DNA of 12,248 bases from positions 1 through 12,248 of the forward strand of contig JACPWU010000060.1 of assembly GCA_016196885.1 (NCBI GenBank). Reading direction: 5' to 3'. Source of the stretch: Chlamydiota bacterium (lineage in GTDB: Bacteria > Auribacterota > JACPWU01). Below the pieces are notes generated by a model. The model was not told where the DNA came from, did no database searches, and worked only from the letters and a program-made list of their open reading frames with translations. The position numbers and the translations under genes are program-made. Shown one piece after another: positions 1,554 through 11,399 of this stretch. Positions within the stretch are counted from its first letter, which is position 1. Every line of letters starts with the position of its first letter.

Positions 1554-1566
1554 TTGGAGACTCCTT

Positions 1567-1655
1567 TTATAAGTTTTAAGTTGTAAGTTTTAAGTTGTAA
1601 GTAAAAAAATAAACTCCTTTAAAACTTAGAACTTAAAACTTATAACTTAGAACTG
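1567..1655. repeat. Heptamer-periodic palindromic intergenic element, TAAGTTN family, copy 1 (long imperfect hairpin)
   Basis: TAAG recurs at 1570, 1577, 1584, 1591 and 1598, an exact 7-nt spacing. The complementary CTTA recurs at 1625, 1632, 1639 and 1646. The arms pair over about 26 nt with 2 mismatches. The loop contains CTCCTT, which reads AAGGAG on the transcribed minus strand. The right arm covers the last four codons and the stop codon of the TolC-like gene. Confidence 0.85.
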
Positions 1656-3808
1656 CTTTTTATTTTCTTCTTCGCTCTTTCTAAATAAATCTGTACACGA
1701 CGGTTTTGAGGATCTAATTCGAGCGCCTTGTTCCAAGCCTCGATGGCTTCTTCGTATTTTTCTTCCTGATAGAGAACCTCTCCTTTTTTGATCCATCCGT
1801 CGACATCGAGAGTCTCATTTGATTGAGATCCAGTGGATGCTTTTCCGGAAATGGTTTTAGGAGATGTCGTACTTTTAGAAGAATCCCAGAATTGCCACCA
1901 GGGTTTGTCTCCCTGTAGACGGCGAATCACGTCTTGATAGCCTGCGGTGCTGGGGAGAGAGCCGACATCTCCAGGATTGTTAATGTAGGTTCGCCAAGCA
2001 TCAACGGGGGCGACTTCCTCTTGAAGCCCTCGCTTTAAGTCAAAATAATCTGTTAGACCCACGGTCTTATTCAAGTTGGCCACCGCCGTGTAATAACCTG
2101 TGAGAGATTGCCCGTAATCCGATTGGGCCCTTGAATATTTGTCTCGGGAATCCAAAAGTTCTGAATCGAGAACTTCATTCAGCTCAAATCTTGCTTCGGA
2201 CACCCGCATCTCTTTTTGAGCCACTTTTAATTTATCAGAATTGTTCTCGAGTTGTTGAGCGGCCTTGATGTATTCGTAATAATTTTTCTTCACTTCAAAA
2301 ATAATAGAATTACGTTTTTTAACGTATTCATCAATGGCTTTTAAATATTTAATATCGGCCTCTTTGATATCAATCTTGGCCGTGTTGTTCCAAAAATACC
2401 ATTTGAGGGTATTGCTCTGAAATTCCGTAGCCGTGGTTTGTCCCACGCTAGGGACTTTGTCTTGGGCAATGAAATTGTCTTCTAAGGTACTTGAACCAAA
2501 GGCCTTGTTGACTTTAACGCCTACAAACCATTCTTTTTCCAACTCTATATCTTCCGTAATGAAGGCCTCATCATTTAATCCTGCACTGCCTTCCAAACTC
2601 ACATTCCATTTGTATTCGCTCCTCGCAATTTTCTGACCCGCTTGATTGTATTCAATGAGAAGTTCATCCACGATGAGGTCGGATCTATTTTTGAAAGCCA
2701 GTTCAGTACATTGTTCTAAAGTTGTTTCCAGGCGATAGGGGCCCAGCACAGACCGGATGGTGAAGGGGGCTTCTTGATGGGTATCGAGGATTTGAGTCAT
2801 GGTGAGCTGGGCCAAAATCAAATCCTTTTCGGCAGCCTCTTTGCGGTAACGGATTTCACCCACCTTGGTTTTGGACTTCAACCATTCTAGTTCTGTGGCC
2901 AATTCCATTTTGTATTTTTGCTCTGTGATGTGAAGGTCTTTTTGAGCTTTTTCATGAAGTGCGTGCAAATCTTGAACGTCTTTGAGTGCATTGGTTAAAA
3001 TAAAATAAGCTTGCTCCACTTTGAAATCGAGTTCAGACACCTCTTTTTGAAGATTGCGCTTGGCAATTTCCCAATTGGTCTTGGCTTGAAGGTAGAGGGC
3101 CTTGTTTTTGCCCCAGGTGAGGAGAGGCTTTTGAACTTCCAAAGTGATTTCTCGTCCCGTAAAATCTTGACCCGTGGTCGTTCCGCGTGTTTCCTTCCAG
3201 AAGGCATCTACGGAGGGCCACAGGGCCCGCCTGGCAGGGGTTATTTTGGCTTGAGCGAGGGTTGCCTCCTCCCGTGCGATTTTGACAGAGAGGCTGTTGG
3301 CTCGGGCGATCATAATGCATTGCTCTAAAGTGAGAGGGGTGCCTGAACCTGGCAGTGGCTCATTTTCAGCACTTGGATAGTCGAACATCTTTTCTATGTT
3401 TCCAGGGTTAGAGGATACGGGTGATGGGGGGGGGGTTTGTGGGGCGGCTTTTGCTTTTTCTTCTTGGATAAGCATTTCTTCCATGTTCGGAACTCTTTGA
3501 AGAATAGAATCCAGAAGCCTTAAAATCTCTTTATTTTTTGGATCGACGAGAAGGGCTTTTTTGAGTTCTATATAAGCTGTTTTATAATCTCCTTTTCGGG
3601 CAGCCATCTTTCCCACGCGGAGCTGATTTTTTACGTAGGTTTTTTGTTCAGGTGTAAGAGGGGAGGACGAGGAAGCGTCTGAAGCGGGAGAAAGACTTTC
3701 ATTTGAGGAGGCCCCTAATAAATTTTCAGAAGGAAAAAAAGTCAAAGTGAAAGAGGAAAGGGTCAGGAAAAGAATCAAGACCCGTCCGAAGGTTAGAAAA
3801 TATTTCAA
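1640..3808 (-). CDS. TolC-family outer membrane efflux protein with TPR motifs at both termini
   Basis: The central region of about 430 aa has the duplicated outer-membrane-efflux-protein architecture (LTLEQCIMIARANSLSVKIAREE...; second half TLEQCTELAFKNRSDLIVDE...). The N-terminal segment KGDYKTAYIELKKALLVDPKN and the C-terminal segment EEKYEEAIEAWNKALELDPQN are TPR-like. The track ORF starts at a GTG at 3823. I prefer the TTG at 3808, which sits 7 nt after GGAGGA and gives a canonical signal peptide, MKYFLTFGRVLILFLTLSSFTLTFF. Confidence 0.8.
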   Translation of the reverse strand: MKYFLTFGRVLILFLTLSSFTLTFFPSENLLGASSNESLSPASDASSSSPLTPEQKTYVKNQLRVGKMAARKGDYKTAYIELKKALLVDPKNKEILRLLDSILQRVPNMEEMLIQEEKAKAAPQTPPPSPVSSNPGNIEKMFDYPSAENEPLPGSGTPLTLEQCIMIARANSLSVKIAREEATLAQAKITPARRALWPSVDAFWKETRGTTTGQDFTGREITLEVQKPLLTWGKNKALYLQAKTNWEIAKRNLQKEVSELDFKVEQAYFILTNALKDVQDLHALHEKAQKDLHITEQKYKMELATELEWLKSKTKVGEIRYRKEAAEKDLILAQLTMTQILDTHQEAPFTIRSVLGPYRLETTLEQCTELAFKNRSDLIVDELLIEYNQAGQKIARSEYKWNVSLEGSAGLNDEAFITEDIELEKEWFVGVKVNKAFGSSTLEDNFIAQDKVPSVGQTTATEFQSNTLKWYFWNNTAKIDIKEADIKYLKAIDEYVKKRNSIIFEVKKNYYEYIKAAQQLENNSDKLKVAQKEMRVSEARFELNEVLDSELLDSRDKYSRAQSDYGQSLTGYYTAVANLNKTVGLTDYFDLKRGLQEEVAPVDAWRTYINNPGDVGSLPSTAGYQDVIRRLQGDKPWWQFWDSSKSTTSPKTISGKASTGSQSNETLDVDGWIKKGEVLYQEEKYEEAIEAWNKALELDPQNRRVQIYLERAKKKIKSSSKL

Positions 3809-3844
3809 GTGCTGCTCCTCCACCCGGCGGCTTTATGTACATGA

Positions 3845-3967
3845 GACCTCTGAAAAAGGCCCATCTGACAACGCTTCCTGCTTCGCTCAGTCGTGCGGCG
3901 TACTGGAGAACGTACGCCTCCTCCCTCGCTCGCAGGCGCCTCGCATCTGGGACCTTTTTGAGAGGTC
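3845..3967. repeat. Structured dispersed repeat, copy A (123 bp; 18-19-nt terminal inverted arms plus a conserved apical hairpin)
   Basis: Collinear with 10804-10924, with most positions identical by eye. The outer arms are GACCTCTGAAAAAGGCCC and GGGACCTTTTTGAGAGGTC. The apical hairpin is GGCGTAC-tggagaac-GTACGCC (3897-3918). CATCTG is directly repeated just inside both arms. The element lies between the divergent TolC-like and hypothetical genes. Confidence 0.8.
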
Positions 3968-4028
3968 TCTAGAAGTAGGGGTTTTTCAGAGGCTTCGTAC
4001 ATATATGTATGCAAAAAATAATGCGCCC

Positions 4029-4057
4029 ATGCTAGTACATAAATCCTTCTGTGTCAA
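4029..4057 (-). promoter_or_regulatory. Candidate sigma70-type promoter for the TolC-like/adaptor operon
   Basis: The minus strand reads TTGACA (4057..4052), a 17-nt spacer, then TAGCAT (4034..4029). This implies a leader of about 200 nt containing repeat copy A. Motif match only. Confidence 0.4.
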
Positions 4058-4078
4058 CGGTATTTTTGGGTTTTTCAC

Positions 4079-4107
4079 TTGACACTCTTCCATCCCCATG
4101 TTATGTT
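4079..4107 (+). promoter_or_regulatory. Candidate sigma70-type promoter (extended -10) for the 4141-4614 gene and possibly the HU/IHF gene
   Basis: TTGACA (4079-4084), a 17-nt spacer, then TATGTT (4102-4107), with TG at 4099-4100 in the extended -10 position. It sits back-to-back with the minus-strand promoter, with 21 bp between the two -35 boxes. Confidence 0.45.
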
Positions 4108-4140
4108 CAAAACAAAGAGTTTTATTGTGAGGGGATCATC

Positions 4141-4614
4141 TTGGGCCAAAGGAACTTAGAGCTAAAAATTGAAATGCTCGAAAGTTTCATGAATTTATGG
4201 AAAAAGCTTCATGACATCTTAGATTCTCTTTTGAAAGATCATCAAGCGACAGAAGAGATGGAGCGGAATTTCCTGAGTGTCAAGGCTGAGATTGCCCGTC
4301 AGCATGCCAGACTCAGTGAAGATCTCGGGCTGGACGCTCATTTTGCAGATGAGGTGATGGGGATGCTGAGCCAGATGATTTCTCTCAAAGATTATCTTAC
4401 CCTTTCTGCCACGCAGACGCGAAGAATCGAGTCCCAATGGCATCATCTCTTCATTCTCATGCATGGTCAATTAGGAAAATATCAAGCCCATCAAGAAAAG
4501 AAGAGTTCTGGAAAGTGGCTCTTGCGAATTTTAAAAAATCCATGGGTGGTTTTGACGTTGGGGGTACTTGTCTTGGTGGGAATTTATTTTGTGGGACAGA
4601 GGATATTGCATTAA
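4141..4614 (+). CDS. Hypothetical alpha-helical protein with a C-terminal transmembrane anchor
   Basis: The track ORF begins at a GTG at 4051, which would place the predicted promoter inside the CDS. An in-frame TTG at 4141 follows GAGGGG (4129-4134) by 6 nt. An in-frame ATG at 4174 is the alternative start. The C-terminus WVVLTLGVLVLVGIYFVG is a single TM segment. I recognise no family. Confidence 0.55.
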   Translation: MGQRNLELKIEMLESFMNLWKKLHDILDSLLKDHQATEEMERNFLSVKAEIARQHARLSEDLGLDAHFADEVMGMLSQMISLKDYLTLSATQTRRIESQWHHLFILMHGQLGKYQAHQEKKSSGKWLLRILKNPWVVLTLGVLVLVGIYFVGQRILH

Positions 4615-4617
4615 AAA

Positions 4618-4707
4618 CAGTTATAAGTTGTAAGTTTTAAGTTCTAAGTTTTTAAAGGAGTTTATTCTTTTGTTTACTTATAACTTGCGACTTAAAACTT
4701 ACAACTG
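4618..4707. repeat. Heptamer-periodic palindromic intergenic element, TAAGTTN family, copy 2
   Basis: TAAG recurs at 4624, 4631, 4638 and 4645. CTTA/CTTG recurs at 4677, 4684, 4691 and 4698. At least 17 contiguous bp can pair in one register and 26/32 in another. The core TAAGTTTTAAGTTCTAAGTTTT(T)AAAGGAGTTTATT matches the reverse complement of copy 1, apart from one extra T in a T run. Confidence 0.85.
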
Positions 4708-4727: not shown

Positions 4728-5051
4728 ATGACAAAGCGAGATTTGGCCATTCGCATTGCCAATGAGACAGGGGTTCCCCAAATTGCCGTCAAGGAGGTGA
4801 TTCAAAAAACACTGGACTATATCATTGAGAGTTTGGGTAAGAACGATAAGATTGAGCTGAGAAATTTTGGTGTCTTCATGGTGAAGCATCGAGATGCCCG
4901 AGTGGGAAGAAATCCCAACAAGCCCGAGCAAGAAGTTCAGATTCCCGCGAAGAATGTACCTTATTTTAAGCCTGGAAAAGAAATGAAGAAAATTGTTGAG
5001 ACGTTTCTGAATCAGCACCTGAATGCGCCAACGCCTCCGGCAGCTGCGTAA
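4728..5051 (+). CDS. HU/IHF-family nucleoid-associated DNA-binding protein
   Basis: MTKRDLAIRIANETG...IELRNFGVFMVKHRDARVGRNPNKPEQEVQIPAKNVPYFKPGKEMKK matches the bacterial histone-like fold and the arm signature GRNP-x-IPA-x-FKPGK. AAGGAG (4715-4720) lies 7 nt before the ATG at 4728, so the track's GTG at 4707 is rejected as the start. I cannot tell from sequence alone whether this is an IHF subunit or HU. Confidence 0.9.
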   Translation: MTKRDLAIRIANETGVPQIAVKEVIQKTLDYIIESLGKNDKIELRNFGVFMVKHRDARVGRNPNKPEQEVQIPAKNVPYFKPGKEMKKIVETFLNQHLNAPTPPAAA

Positions 5052-5055
5052 AGAT

Positions 5056-5147
5056 TGGTGAGTGGTTATTGGTGAGTGGTAAGTAGAGAGCAAAAGCCTT
5101 AAAAATATATTTCTCACCACTCACCACTCACCAATAACCTCTCACTT
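5056..5147. repeat. Heptamer-periodic palindromic element, TGGTGAG family, between convergent genes (possible bidirectional 3' hairpin)
   Basis: The left arm is five heptamers: TGGTGAG TGGTTAT TGGTGAG TGGTAAG TAGAGAG (5056-5090). A 22-nt A/T-rich loop follows. The right arm is CTCACCA x3 then ATAACCT CTCACTT (5113-5147). Arms 5058-5090 and 5113-5145 pair at 29 of 33 positions. No U tract follows on either strand. Confidence 0.8.
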
Positions 5148-5151
5148 ATCC

Positions 5152-6234
5152 TCACCCGCATTGCGCTCTCTGTAGCAAATAATGATCCACCAAAACAAGT
5201 GCCATCATCGCTTCTACCATCGGAACGGCTCTGGGGAGCACACAAGGGTCATGTCGTCCTGGAGCTGAGAGAAGTGTTTGATCACCTTCCGATGTGACTG
5301 TTTCCTGGATTTGACGAATGGTGGCCGTGGGTTTAAAGGCCACTCGAATCACAATATCCTCGCCATTTGAAATGCCGCCTTGCACGCCTCCTGATCGATT
5401 GGTTTTAGTTCGAACCTTGCCTTCTTCCATATAGAAGGCGTCATTGTGCTGGGATCCTGTCATCAAAGTTCCTTCAAAGCCTGAGCCAATCTCATAGCCC
5501 TTGGTCGCAGGTAAGCTCATCACGGCCTTGGCCAATTCTGCTTCCAGTTTGTCAAAGACTGGATTTCCGAGCCCCACAGGAACTCCTTGGGCGATGGCCT
5601 CAATGATTCCTCCCAAGGAATCACCTTTCTTGCGAGTGTCTTCAATCAGCTGAATCATTTTTTCGGCCGTGGCAGGATCGGGACATCGGACGATGTTAGA
5701 CTCGATTTTTTCATGGGTGAGAAAGGTGGTATCCATCGAACAAGCAATGGAGTGAATTTGTTTTACATAAGCAAGAATTTTCACACCGCACTTTTCTTTT
5801 AAAATTTTTTTTGCTAGAGCCCCTGCGGCCACACGGCCCACGGTTTCTCGAGCGCTAGACCGGCCGCCCCCTTGCCAATTTCGAATCCCATACTTTTGTT
5901 GATAGGTGTAGTCCGCATGGCTGGGGCGAAATGTTTCTTTAAAGGGTGCGTAGTCTTCTGCTTTTGTATCTTTGTTAAGGACCATCATGGAAATAGGCGT
6001 GCCTAATGTCATTCCCTCAAAAACACCCGATAAAATTTGAACGCGGTCTTCCTCCTGACGAGGCGTCGTAATACGGCTTTGACCGGGCCGGCGACGGTCC
6101 AACTCATATTGAATTTCATCCGCTGAAATGGGAATGCGCGGCGGGCAGCCGTCAATGACCACACCGACTCCGCCTCCATGGGATTCACCCCAGGTCGTAA
6201 TTCTAAAAAGATGTCCGAAAGAATTTCCGCTCAT
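5152..6234 (-). CDS. aroC: Chorismate synthase
   Basis: 360 aa. The N-terminus [30 protein letters not shown] and the motifs [17 protein letters not shown] and RPSHADYTY...[10 protein letters not shown] are hallmark chorismate synthase signatures. The length is typical of the family. Confidence 0.95.
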
Positions 6235-6246
6235 TTAGATACCGTT

Positions 6247-6320
6247 CTGCGTACATCGTACATCGTGCATCGTTCTACGTACGCAGTACGATGCACGATG
6301 CACGATGCACGATGCACTGC
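6247..6320. repeat. Heptamer-periodic palindromic element, GCACGAT/ACGATGC family, in the aroC / ATP-grasp divergent spacer
   Basis: Ten in-phase heptamers run from 6251 to 6320: GTACATC GTACATC GTGCATC GTTCTAC GTACGCA GTACGAT GCACGAT GCACGAT GCACGAT GCACTGC. ACGATGC is a perfect tandem x4 at 6288-6315. The left arm pairs with the right arm at about 19 of 21 positions. A nested alternative stem pairs CTGCGTAC (6247-6254) with GTACGCAG (6279-6286). Confidence 0.85.
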
Positions 6321-9174: not shown

Positions 9175-9188
9175 GTTTTTTCTTTTTA

Positions 9189-9207
9189 CTCACCACTCAC
9201 CACTCAC
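9189..9207. repeat. Solo arm of the TGGTGAG heptamer family (CTCACCA x2.7)
   Basis: CTCACCACTCACCACTCAC is identical to 5113-5131, the right arm of the 5056-5147 hairpin. I see no complementary partner within about 60 nt. It spans the stop codon (9204-9206) of the VOC gene and the 29-nt spacer before the oxidase start. Confidence 0.6.
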
Positions 9208-9812
9208 GACTGTCTTTTCGTCGACTGCATCAAACTGTTGGCTTGAGGAGGCTGAAATCCGGCATAGCCCTGATGGCGCTCTGCCAGTTCAAGGACAGAA
9301 AAAGATTCATTTTTGCGCTTTTCAGGTTCTGTAAAGATTTGACGAAGGACAGAGCCCGGTTTGCCGACAATTTTTCCAGAGAATCGAATGCCGTGGGATT
9401 TCATGGCCCGAACCGCTTTTTCAATGTCACCGACTTGAATCGCGACATGATGGAGGGTTTTGTCGCCAAATTTCTTGACCCATCCGGGAATAATGCTGGT
9501 TTTACCCGCGGGACCCTTTTTACCTTGGTCAATGAAGATGGCCGGATGCCCGGGTTTTCGAAGGACAATGGCAAACCAGTCGTCGTATTCCAAAATGCCC
9601 TTGGGACCAACCGTTTTATCCTGCTTGAACCCCAACTTCAAAAATTCTTGAGCTCTTTTATAAACGTCCGTCGTTCGCACAGTCATATGATCTGCAACGG
9701 GTCGAAAACCAATACCTATTTTTTCCAAGACTCGAGCAATGATATGAGCGGATTTATTTTTGCGAAGGTAATCTTGAATGTAGGCCTGAATGACTTTTTC
9801 AGCAGCATCCAT
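9204..9812 (-). CDS. VOC (glyoxalase/bleomycin-resistance/dioxygenase) superfamily protein, resembling the C-terminal module of 4-hydroxyphenylpyruvate dioxygenase
   Basis: 202 aa. HHVAIQVGDIEKAVRAMKSHGIRF, then LRQIFTEPEKR...FSVLELAERHQGYAGF...ANSLMQS, parallels the HPPD C-terminal pattern (HH-A; LLQIFT; FFEIIQR-GFG-GNF-LF). It is probably co-transcribed with the oxidase, with a 29-nt gap on the same strand. Confidence 0.6.
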   Translation of the reverse strand: MDAAEKVIQAYIQDYLRKNKSAHIIARVLEKIGIGFRPVADHMTVRTTDVYKRAQEFLKLGFKQDKTVGPKGILEYDDWFAIVLRKPGHPAIFIDQGKKGPAGKTSIIPGWVKKFGDKTLHHVAIQVGDIEKAVRAMKSHGIRFSGKIVGKPGSVLRQIFTEPEKRKNESFSVLELAERHQGYAGFQPPQANSLMQSTKRQS

Positions 9813-9884: not shown

Positions 9885-10796
9885 ATGAATTTTCTAAAAT
9901 CGTCTAAAACTGTATTAGATTTGGTGGGAAATACCCCTCTTTTGCGTCTTCAAAGGTTGGGGAAGGAATTTTCTCCTGTTCAATTTTATGTCAAAGCCGA
10001 ATGGTTTAATCCGGGAGGCTCTGTCAAAGATAGGCCTGCTTTGAGAATGATTTTGGAGGGGGAACGCTCTGGAAAATTGACACAGGATTTAGTGATTTTA
10101 GATTCTTCATCAGGGAATACCGCCATTGCCTATGCGATGATTGCCGCCTTTCGCAAATACAAGGTGGAGCTTGTCATGCCTGAAAATGTAAGCGATGAGC
10201 GCAAGAAAATTCTCAATGCGTATGGTGCCAAGGTTATTTATACAGATCCCTTAGAGGGTTCAGATGGAGCGATTCGGGAGGCGCATCGGCGCCTTAAAGA
10301 AAATCCTCAAAAATATTTTATGCCGGATCAGTACAACAATCCTTTTAATCCAAAGGCGCATGAAGAGGGTACGGCCCAAGAAATATGGGCTCAGACAGAA
10401 GGAAAGGTAACGCATCTTCTGGCCGGGATTGGGACGGGTGGGACCGTCACAGGAACAGGAAGAGGACTTAAGAAGCACAATCCAAAGATTCAGGTGATTG
10501 CGGTTGAGCCAGCGGGCGCTCTTCATGGTTTGGAAGGGATGAAGCACATGGCTTCTTCGATTGTGCCCGGGATTTATGATGAGAAATCCTTGGAGGGAAA
10601 AGTTTCTGTGGAGACAGAAGATGCCTATGAGATGACCCGAGCTTTATCTCATGAAGAAGGCATTTTGGTGGGGCAATCCTCAGGCGCTGTTTTATGGGGA
10701 ATGTTTCAGGTGGCCAAGAAATTGAAGGAAGGATTGATTGTGGGGGTTTTCCCGGATGGCGGAGATAAGTATTTGACGACACGAGTGTGGGAGTAG
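9885..10796 (+). CDS. cysM: Cysteine synthase, CysM-type PLP-dependent beta-replacement enzyme
   Basis: 303 aa. It has GNTPLLRL, the PLP-lysine motif NPGGSVKDRPA, the Asn-loop SSSGNTAIA, the glycine loop GIGTGGTVTG and the C-terminal QSSGAVL...DGGDKYL. The length and the region VEPAGALHGLEGMKHMASSIVPGIYD resemble the CysM class (E. coli and M. tuberculosis) rather than CysK. Adjacency to a JAMM protease supports this. Confidence 0.85.
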   Translation: MNFLKSSKTVLDLVGNTPLLRLQRLGKEFSPVQFYVKAEWFNPGGSVKDRPALRMILEGERSGKLTQDLVILDSSSGNTAIAYAMIAAFRKYKVELVMPENVSDERKKILNAYGAKVIYTDPLEGSDGAIREAHRRLKENPQKYFMPDQYNNPFNPKAHEEGTAQEIWAQTEGKVTHLLAGIGTGGTVTGTGRGLKKHNPKIQVIAVEPAGALHGLEGMKHMASSIVPGIYDEKSLEGKVSVETEDAYEMTRALSHEEGILVGQSSGAVLWGMFQVAKKLKEGLIVGVFPDGGDKYLTTRVWE

Positions 10797-10803
10797 GGGG
10801 CGC

Positions 10804-10924
10804 GCCCTTTGAAAAAGGCCCATCTGCTGCGTTGCCTGCTTCGCTTAGTCGTGAGGCGTACACGAAAATGTACGCCTCCTCCTTCGCTCTCAGGCGCCTT
10901 GCATCTGGACCTTTTTGAAAGGGC
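10804..10924. repeat. Structured dispersed repeat, copy B (121 bp), filling the cysM-JAMM intergenic spacer
   Basis: Same architecture and orientation as 3845-3967. The outer arms are GCCCTTTGAAAAAGGCCC and GGACCTTTTTGAAAGGGC. The apical hairpin is GGCGTACA-cgaaaa-TGTACGCC (10855-10876), and CATCTG is repeated inside both arms. Confidence 0.8.
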
Positions 10925-10939
10925 TTAAGATTCTAATTT

Positions 10940-11364: not shown

Positions 11365-11399
11365 ACGAACGATCAACGATGAACGATTCACGAGGAACG
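11365..11399. repeat. Solo array of five degenerate heptamers (ANN[A/C]ACG), related to the GCACGAT family
   Basis: ACGAACG ATCAACG ATGAACG ATTCACG AGGAACG are in exact 7-nt register in the JAMM / HEAT-protein spacer. Read in another phase, the units (AACGAT) differ by one base from CACGAT in 6286-6313. There is no inverted partner nearby. Confidence 0.55.

Follow-up and report, generated by a model that had tools for sequence, protein, structure and literature searches.

Two copies of an imperfectly palindromic repeat of about 123 bp lie in the 12,248-nt stretch of DNA analysed here (the window; positions 1 to 12,248 of contig JACPWU010000060.1, assembly GCA_016196885.1, from a Chlamydiota bacterium placed by GTDB in the Auribacterota), and the question raised by this locus is whether the hairpin formed by the repeat is a structured RNA or part of a mobile element. 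An initial annotation, made from the letters alone, had described copy A (3845-3967) and copy B (10804-10924) as a candidate structured RNA or DNA element; both copies were found, collinear and in the same orientation. With high probability A and B are copies of a non-autonomous transposable element of the miniature inverted-repeat kind (MITE) and of IS5 type: the hairpin carries an IS5-type terminal repeat as one of its arms and the family is therefore assigned to the MITEs of this type. The 123-bp repeat is a fairly ordinary mobile repeat and not a new RNA gene.

A repeat family with IS5-type ends

A scan of one genome per species with the pattern AAAAAGGCCCATCTG-N70-100-CCTTTTT yielded at least 117 matching loci in more than 50 assemblies and, judged by the record labels, in at least eight phylum-level groups. 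Among the matches listed, the record titles name NC10/Methylomirabilota, Rokubacteria, a Sulfotelmatobacter metagenome-assembled genome (MAG; Acidobacteriota), many "Deltaproteobacteria", Bdellovibrio (Bdellovibrionota; complete genomes included), Oligoflexia, Eubacteriales/Limiplasma/Sporomusa (Bacillota), Limnocylindria (Chloroflexota) and Binatia (Binatota). The NC10 chromosome OY970067.1 and Bdellovibrio sp. HCB290 (NZ_CP178620.1) are examples of complete genomes in which the element is abundant. The profile search for further copies that the initial annotation had proposed was run with nhmmer on the fetched loci and gave 267 hits, which collapse to at least 159 distinct copies because the palindrome matches on both strands; the median score was 98.6 bits on the better strand versus 26.9 bits on the other and the orientation of the copies is therefore well defined. 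A 17-mer of the family gave 12 hits in viral contigs, each over 17-22 nt, which were dismissed as matches by chance. In a literature search that was not exhaustive, no paper containing the family 15-mer, no MITE described for these taxa and no published name of the family was found.

The family consensus starts with a YTAR tetranucleotide, reads CAGGCTGCTGAAAAAGGCCCATCTG…CGTAC-loop-GTACG…GCATCTGGACCTTTTTGAGCAGCCTG and continues in most copies with a spacer and a third arm, TTTTTCAGCAGCCTG, before a second YTAR. In copies aligned on their ends, YTAR (mostly CTAG, TTAG or CTAA) lies directly 5' of the left arm L (consensus CAGGCTGCTGAAAAA), the right arm R1 (...CCTTTTTGAGCAGCCTG) is followed in most copies by a spacer of 4, 12 or 21 nt, and the third arm R2 is in the consensus the exact inverse of L. 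In a weight-matrix scan, 85 of 138 copies have an R2 above the 95th percentile of the control, about 125 bp as hairpin and about 150-170 bp together with the third arm. The segments CGTTG, CGTAC/GTACGCCTC and CGCCTTGCATCTGG are more than 90% conserved without being forced by the scan pattern, whereas the conservation of the two segments used in that pattern is partly forced by the search.

Copy A fits this three-arm layout, with agreement of L and R2 at 13 of 15 positions, while only L and the internal arm R1 were found in copy B. The hairpin of A is present where the initial annotation had placed it, but the element spans 3843-3996 (154 bp) and thus extends beyond the reported end: past the hairpin follow a 12-nt spacer and the third arm TTTTTCAGAGGCTTC (3982-3996), and a GTACAT direct repeat lies on either side (3837-3842 and 3997-4002). 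Copy B covers 10802-10926 (125 bp), has neither a third arm nor a flanking duplication and is probably an older or truncated copy. The features of both copies are as follows.

3837..3842, no strand: left GTACAT flank of copy A, a 6-bp direct repeat; possible remnant of a target-site duplication, not the usual YTAR
3843..3857, plus strand: left arm L of copy A, GAGACCTCTGAAAAA; corresponds to the terminal inverted repeat at the left end of IS5-type elements, CAGGCTG(C/T)TGAAAAA, matching at 10 of 15 positions
3843..3969, plus strand: hairpin of copy A from L to R1, with conserved blocks GGCCCATCTG and GCATCTGGGACC; nhmmer 67.6 bits on the plus strand
3897..3918, plus strand: apical stem-loop of copy A, GGCGTAC, loop TGGAGAAC, GTACGCC
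3955..3969, plus strand: internal right arm R1 of copy A, TTTTTGAGAGGTCTC; pairs with L save for the conserved G.G mismatch
3970..3981, plus strand: spacer of copy A between R1 and the third arm, 12 nt, the modal length in the family
3982..3996, plus strand: distal right arm R2 of copy A, TTTTTCAGAGGCTTC; outer terminal inverted repeat with two mismatches to the reverse complement of L
3997..4002, no strand: right GTACAT flank of copy A, second copy of the direct repeat
10802..10926, plus strand: hairpin of copy B from L (GCGCCCTTTGAAAAA) to R1 (TTTTTGAAAGGGCTT); nhmmer 79.9 bits
10855..10876, plus strand: apical stem-loop of copy B, GGCGTAC, loop ACGAAAAT, GTACGCC

The arm L of the family was found to be the terminal inverted repeat of IS5-family elements of about 1.5 kb in Sinorhizobium, Bradyrhizobium and Hyphomicrobium. 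A BLAST search of plasmids with the 38-nt left end as query gave matches in 89 alphaproteobacterial replicons; they cover positions 1-24 of the query, lie in DNA without annotation and are often present more than once in a replicon. In the same database, the whole 160-nt family consensus gave no match to plasmids. On S. meliloti pSmeSM11c the matching stretch forms the left end of an element of 1543 bp, which runs between two CTAG flanks from CAGGCTGTTGAAAAAGGGCCC to ACTTCTTCAACGGCCTG and whose right end reads CAACGGCCTG before the CTAG. Its 363-residue open reading frame (ORF) encodes an IS5-family transposase, which scores 209 bits with NF033581 (cut-off 140) and above the cut-off with PF05598, and weakly and below threshold with PF01609 (20 versus 23 bits). 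Independent protein searches led to a Bradyrhizobium relative, a 1528-bp element with the same ends and CTAA/CTAA flanks, and to a Hyphomicrobium relative that starts with CAGGTTGTTGAAGAAGG directly after CTAG.

In these IS5-family elements a conserved second ORF of about 110 residues follows directly after the transposase gene (L143 2689-3024, L146 2292-2636, L147 2286-2561); the complete L146 product has no hit in the precomputed Pfam annotation and none is on record for the end-truncated product of L147. In Paracoccus versutus pBEN (L144 1505-1663) a different non-coding element of about 160 bp ends in these same terminal repeats (CAGGCTGCTGAAAAAG...CTTTTTCAGCAGCCTG), with CTAG on one side and CCAG on the other, and has an unrelated interior without the long hairpin core. 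By BLAST it occurs at 16 places in the replicon, and it represents a second MITE family on the same IS5-type ends.

That the 4-mers flanking the element are target-site duplications was derived from their distribution. In 17 of 83 copies the same 4-mer precedes L and follows R2, compared to 5.6 in shuffled pairs (maximum of 13 in 5000 shuffles). Among the non-palindromic flanks eight are direct (such as TTAG/TTAG, CTAA/CTAA, CTAC/CTAC and CTGG/CTGG) and one is inverted, which indicates a 4-bp duplication and speaks against the 4-mers being part of the inverted repeat; a TA duplication of the IS630 type was rejected on the same observation. Flank identity amounts to 13 of 26 copies if R2 has at most two mismatches to L and to 0 of 14 with four mismatches. 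An element end at R1 was rejected, as the 4-mers right after R1 show no duplication (0/57 and 1/82 identical). IS5 was reported to make YTAR duplications (PMC10359306). At the family level a transposon terminal sequence together with target-site duplications was therefore found, an outcome that the initial annotation itself had named as refuting its interpretation, and the reading as a structured RNA that is no MITE is not supported.

A filled and an empty site were found in one orthologous pair, in which L121 reads ...ctgCTAG, insertion, CTAGgcc... and L055 reads ...ctgCTGCgcc..., the bounds of the insertion being L and R2. L062 and L052 were considered as a second such pair and are too diverged to be used. 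The L121 insertion (copy at 2454 on the minus strand, with 230 nt downstream) is itself composite and consists of a full hairpin, a second hairpin without left arm, a spacer and R2, all within a single pair of CTAG flanks.

The repeat is short and non-coding, possesses terminal inverted repeats shared with insertion sequences, occurs in dispersed copies and is polymorphic for presence and absence; the 4-bp YTAR duplication is seen at the level of the family, and the window copies A and B do not show a YTAR pair. For its spread, an IS5-family DDE transposase supplied in trans would bind L and R2, excise the element and insert it at YTAR with duplication of 4 bp. The L-R1 hairpin with its fixed mismatches would be kept as lineages losing the hairpin would stop spreading. 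Transposition or the stability of the palindrome may depend on it at the level of DNA, and the host may tolerate it or use it as an element of 3' or 5' untranslated regions.

Several observations weigh against this assignment to the IS5-type MITEs. The insertion sequences with matching ends are alphaproteobacterial and have only the first 17-22 nt in common with the element, the arms of the window copies are diverged (10 of 15 positions match the repeat of the insertion sequences), and no IS5-family transposase with matching ends was found in the window or in any 8-kb locus with the hairpin element. Solitary terminal repeats were likewise not found in the fetched loci, and tblastn of the loci with an approximate E. 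coli InsH query returned nothing. Copy A is flanked by GTACAT instead of YTAR and copy B lacks third arm and duplication, identical flanks occur in only about half of the well-preserved copies, and just one clean filled/empty pair is available. Where L departs from the consensus, R1 follows at 62% of positions and R2 at 28%. Conservation of the interior blocks equals or exceeds that of the terminal repeats, and the core is kept under different outer arms in L133 and L138, which is unusual for MITEs. These two JGI metagenome contigs (L133 5040-5140, L138 1515-1615) combine a window-type interior, TCGTTG...GTCGCTCAGTCGTGCGGCGTAC-loop-GTACGCCTCCTCCTTCGCTC...GGCGCCTAG, with the outer arms CTGGGACTCATTTGCT / AGCAAATGAGTCCCAG in place of the GAAAAAGG arms.

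Further variants were observed within the family. In a Candidatus Limiplasma MAG (Bacillota), three units form head-to-tail arrays with a period of about 180-188 nt (L046 1592-2131 and L115 897-1420), in which a conserved spacer of 60 nt, ending in a terminator-like stem, comes after each hairpin. In Bdellovibrio bacteriovorus YOA24 (L064 3155-3250) only the left arm GTGAAAAAGGCCCATCTG is present, followed by unrelated sequence and a terminator-like stem, and this match represents a truncated copy or else was picked up by the scan pattern by chance.

Probable selection on the hairpin and rival explanations

The proposal that the pairing is maintained had been derived from the two window copies, in which the outer arms read GACCTCT/AGAGGTC (A) and GCCCTTT/AAAGGGC (B) and each of two left-arm differences goes along with the complementary right-arm change. 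Given two left changes, the chance that the right arm changes at the exact partner positions to the partner bases is estimated as about 1 in 190 and the observation is therefore sound. The other details described at that time were also seen: the G-opposite-G mismatch, the apical stem GGCGTAC/GTACGCC and the CATCTG and TCGCTC-like direct repeats are present in A and B, the 8-nt loops are unrelated, and the ORFs crossing the two copies are in different frames and on different strands. A and B show 88% mean column identity (alignment of 146 columns) and 84% identity in an 87-nt core (repeat search of the window), and they have the 16-mer GAAAAAGGCCCATCTG in common (two occurrences versus 0.26 expected by chance). 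Among the matches listed they are each other's nearest relatives (83% identity), with about 78% identity to copies from NC10 and deltaproteobacteria. Compared to shuffled sequences, the two copies fold with z = -3.8 and -7.0 on the plus strand and -7.3 and -8.9 on the minus strand; the fold energy of copy A is -50.4 (plus) and -66.4 (minus) kcal/mol.

Covariation was analysed over 23 pairs of the outer (L-R1) and apical stems, both of which are recovered by RNAalifold, in 80 copies that are less than 93% identical to each other. In these stems 97.0% of the cells are paired and 95 double-sided changes were counted versus 14.4 in shuffles (0/500 reach 95); controls with slid partners gave 12-25. 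The claim that the pairing is kept by compensatory change is thereby borne out on non-redundant copies. With regard to the wider claim of selection on structure rather than on coding, the non-coding character and the covariation of the stems stand, while the reading as a free-standing structured RNA is contradicted by the IS5 ends and the YTAR duplications. In the apical stem all four pairs have double-sided changes and 99% of the cells are paired (for example CGTAG/CTACG, CGTGC/GCACG and CTTAC/GTAAG); since the apex lies outside the transposon end, pairing at this place is kept up for its own sake. The middle stem is wholly different between subfamilies yet complementary, as in GGCGCCCTCGGCCGCACGC/GCGTGCGGCCGTCGGGCGCC, CCGGATAAGGGCGG/CCGCCCTTATCCGG and GGAGGGGGCC/GGCCCCCTCC, which are given as examples and not as a score since both MAFFT and half-against-half alignments misalign the variable interior. 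In the minimum-energy fold L pairs with R1, not with R2, in 79-82 of 85 full copies.

Nearly fixed across the family are several non-Watson-Crick positions, namely a G.G (87/93 copies), a C.A (80/93), a tandem T.C/C.T (88/93) and three G.T positions. These mismatches argue against pure copying from arm to arm as the cause of the covariation; they may prevent R1 from being used as an end of the transposon or may leave the palindrome imperfect enough for stability. The covarying pairs show almost no G.U wobble intermediates. Considering the wobble positions for both strands, 435 G.T stand against 249 A.C, whereas in 138 of 140 copies the minus strand has the more stable fold, by about 10 kcal/mol; as wobble counts and fold energy disagree, the relevant fold could be of RNA or of single-stranded DNA and of either strand.

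The conserved interior and the variant in L133/L138 hint at a function beyond transposase binding. One possibility, which is considered unlikely but is compatible with carriage by a MITE, is that the interior is a functional structured module carried between genomes by the element. The module would comprise GGCCCATCTGC, CGTTG, the CGTAC-loop-GTACG apex with its covariation and CGCCTTGCATCTGG, together with the fixed G.G, C.A and tandem pyrimidine mismatches. It could act as folded single-stranded DNA or RNA recruiting a host or transposon factor, or on neighbouring mRNAs as portable stabiliser, terminator or leader. Such a module would explain the conservation of the core across at least eight phylum-level groups, its survival in L133/L138 and the tighter covariation of L with R1 than with R2.

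It is very unlikely that the hairpin itself is the selected product, i.e., a structured non-coding RNA (an element acting in cis on an mRNA, or else a small RNA gene) that is merely copied around. The strong covariation of the outer and apical stems, the conservation of specific non-Watson-Crick positions, the better folding of one strand in nearly all copies and the preservation of the core across phyla and under other outer arms would suit such an RNA, as would a promoter-like site in the window (4057-4029, minus strand) from which copy A would be transcribed as part of the leader of the TolC-like operon. Against it stand the ends, which equal the IS5 terminal repeat and are accompanied by YTAR duplications, the near absence of G.U intermediates at covarying pairs and the wobble counts of the two strands. 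The gene contexts are unrelated: protein families shared by the 8-kb neighbourhoods were not enriched, and clustering of 2040 ORFs all-against-all gave housekeeping families only. With the Rfam 15 covariance models at E<=1, nothing overlaps the two window copies or the consensus-type copies of eight loci, and only chance microRNA-like matches to other hairpins were obtained; the initial annotation had not recognised the repeat as any named non-coding RNA.

The position of the copies relative to genes bears on the same alternative. A long ORF on the strand of the element stops at its left boundary in 80 of 144 copies and an opposite-strand ORF stops near its right boundary in 36 of 144; both peaks are sharp, the stop codon being the TAG/TAA of the YTAR flank or a TGA inside L. 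The copies thus occur in both orientations relative to the abutting genes, which argues against a strictly strand-specific RNA function. As YTAR holds a stop codon on both strands, insertion at a stop with duplication would leave the gene intact, and copies may adjoin gene ends because YTAR makes stop codons frequent and harmless targets.

A further alternative concerns only the cause of the arm covariation and is compatible with the element being a MITE: the compensatory pattern would be of mutational origin and not a sign of selection. Template switching in quasi-palindromes during replication would copy changes between the arms, and the hairpin would have arisen passively from an inverted duplication. 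In E. coli, the repair of quasi-palindromes by template switching is well established as a source of mutations, and changes that lead nearly always from one Watson-Crick pair to another without wobble intermediates are as expected from it. However, such a process should erase mismatches, and the G.G, C.A and tandem T.C/C.T positions are retained across phyla, so that at least those positions are under constraint; this explanation is considered highly improbable.

The idea of a REP/REPIN-type palindromic repeat, spread by a domesticated single-strand transposase (Y1, RAYT) and not by a DDE enzyme, can practically be dismissed, since the long imperfect intergenic hairpin, the high copy number, the tandem arrays in Limiplasma (period 180-188 nt) and conserved asymmetric mismatches resembling those of REPINs are outweighed by flanking 4-bp direct repeats and an inverted third arm, neither of which is a REP feature, by an arm that equals the IS5 inverted repeat, by the lack of a 20-40-nt REP unit with GTAG or CGTC tag in the alignment, and by the finding that neither Y1 nor any other protein family is enriched within 8 kb of the copies. 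An integron attC site was rejected, as the ends read CAGGCTG.../...CAGCCTG without the AAC/GTT boxes of RYYYAAC ... GTTRRRY.

Genomic setting of copies A and B

Copy A is located between a TolC-like/RND efflux operon (1640-3823, minus strand), whose 5' end faces it, and a small gene (4051-4614, plus strand). Copy B begins 5 nt past the TAG stop codon of a cysteine-synthase-like gene (9885-10796) and is followed by a JAMM/Mov34-like gene. Logan assemblies from three different runs all end 36 nt inside copy B, which is the expected behaviour at a multicopy repeat.

The chorismate synthase of the window has its best named relative in a Chlamydiae MAG (82% identity), and the gene order chorismate synthase - HU - small gene - TolC-like - RND is common to the window and two related Chlamydiota MAGs, in which no copy was found in 32 kb of syntenic DNA, the orthologous intergenic region included. 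The GC content of the copies is 55-57% versus 43.6% in the window. The absence from the two related MAGs and the GC contrast fit acquisition and local spread; A and B have probably been brought into this Chlamydiota-like genome from elsewhere.

Two divergent promoter-like sites were noticed close to the right end of copy A (4057-4029, minus strand, and 4079-4107, plus strand), each a consensus match at 10 of 12 positions. The predicted minus-strand promoter would read through copy A into the TolC-like/RND operon and would thus put the more stable strand of the hairpin into the operon leader.

Most of the other intergenic gaps in the window (1558-1663, 4610-4706, 5048-5155, 6250-6317, 9177-9211 and 11367-11399) hold a long hairpin or half-hairpin of a different type, built of tandem 7-nt units in inverted arrays (TAAGTTG/TTAAAAC, GGTGAGT/ACTCACC, CGTACAT/ACGATGC) that vary by site. 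Against Rfam these heptamer hairpins gave only sub-threshold microRNA-like matches at chance level. A similar hairpin is found in a related Chlamydiota MAG, in the orthologous gap on the TolC side (L148, about 12150-12300). These heptamer hairpins may be more unusual than the 123-bp repeat itself.

Significance and comparison with known systems

The finding reveals no new kind of system. For annotation, the repeat accounts for breaks in short-read assemblies of these genomes and could be mis-called as small RNA, terminator or short ORF. Its less ordinary traits are the presence in many phyla, a spread that is unusually wide for a MITE, the three-arm layout, the targeting of stop codons that follows from YTAR and an interior conserved to the same degree as the ends. 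In view of these traits, a separate function of the hairpin core retains a modest probability. The cultured carriers Bdellovibrio (sp. HCB290) and Sporomusa (sp. KB1) offer a convenient case to study if transposition depends on MITE hairpins or if the host makes use of them.

REP/BIME and REPIN sequences are likewise intergenic hairpin repeats at gene ends, sometimes arrayed and with conserved asymmetries. They differ in having units of 20-40 nt with a GTAG or CGTC tag, no target duplication and dependence on RAYT, none of which was seen in the present family. ERIC/IRU (127 bp) is similar in size, forms an imperfect palindrome in transcribed intergenic DNA and is listed among the MITEs; its host range differs. 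Compensatory changes have been reported for ERIC as well. It is not known to be related in sequence to the present family, nor to have IS5-type ends or YTAR flanks.

Correia/NEMIS of Neisseria, RUP of S. pneumoniae, Nezha of cyanobacteria and Chunjie of Geobacter are likewise short, non-coding and multicopy and possess terminal inverted repeats and target duplications. Correia and RUP produce a TA duplication, and Chunjie was rejected as a relative as it has a 9-bp duplication and is AT-rich, compared to the 4-bp YTAR duplication of the present family. These MITEs are unrelated in sequence and each is confined to one genus or family, whereas the present family is found in many phyla and has the three-arm layout of L, R1 and R2. 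Prokaryotic MITEs were reported to fold into stable hairpins and to be mostly intergenic (PMC3184786, PMC10969869).

The IS5-family insertion sequences (IS5_4 group of NCBIfam) differ from the window element by their size of 1.5 kb and by encoding a DDE transposase (DUF772 and DDE_Tnp_1) and a small second ORF, whereas the window element is non-coding, measures 125-154 bp and possesses a conserved hairpin core and one more inverted arm in its interior, neither of which these insertion sequences have. The similarity ends at about 22 nt. Within it, both have the terminal repeat CAGGCTG(C/T)TGAAAAAGG in common, and common to both are the YTAR flanks (CTAG, CTAA) that behave as 4-bp duplications.

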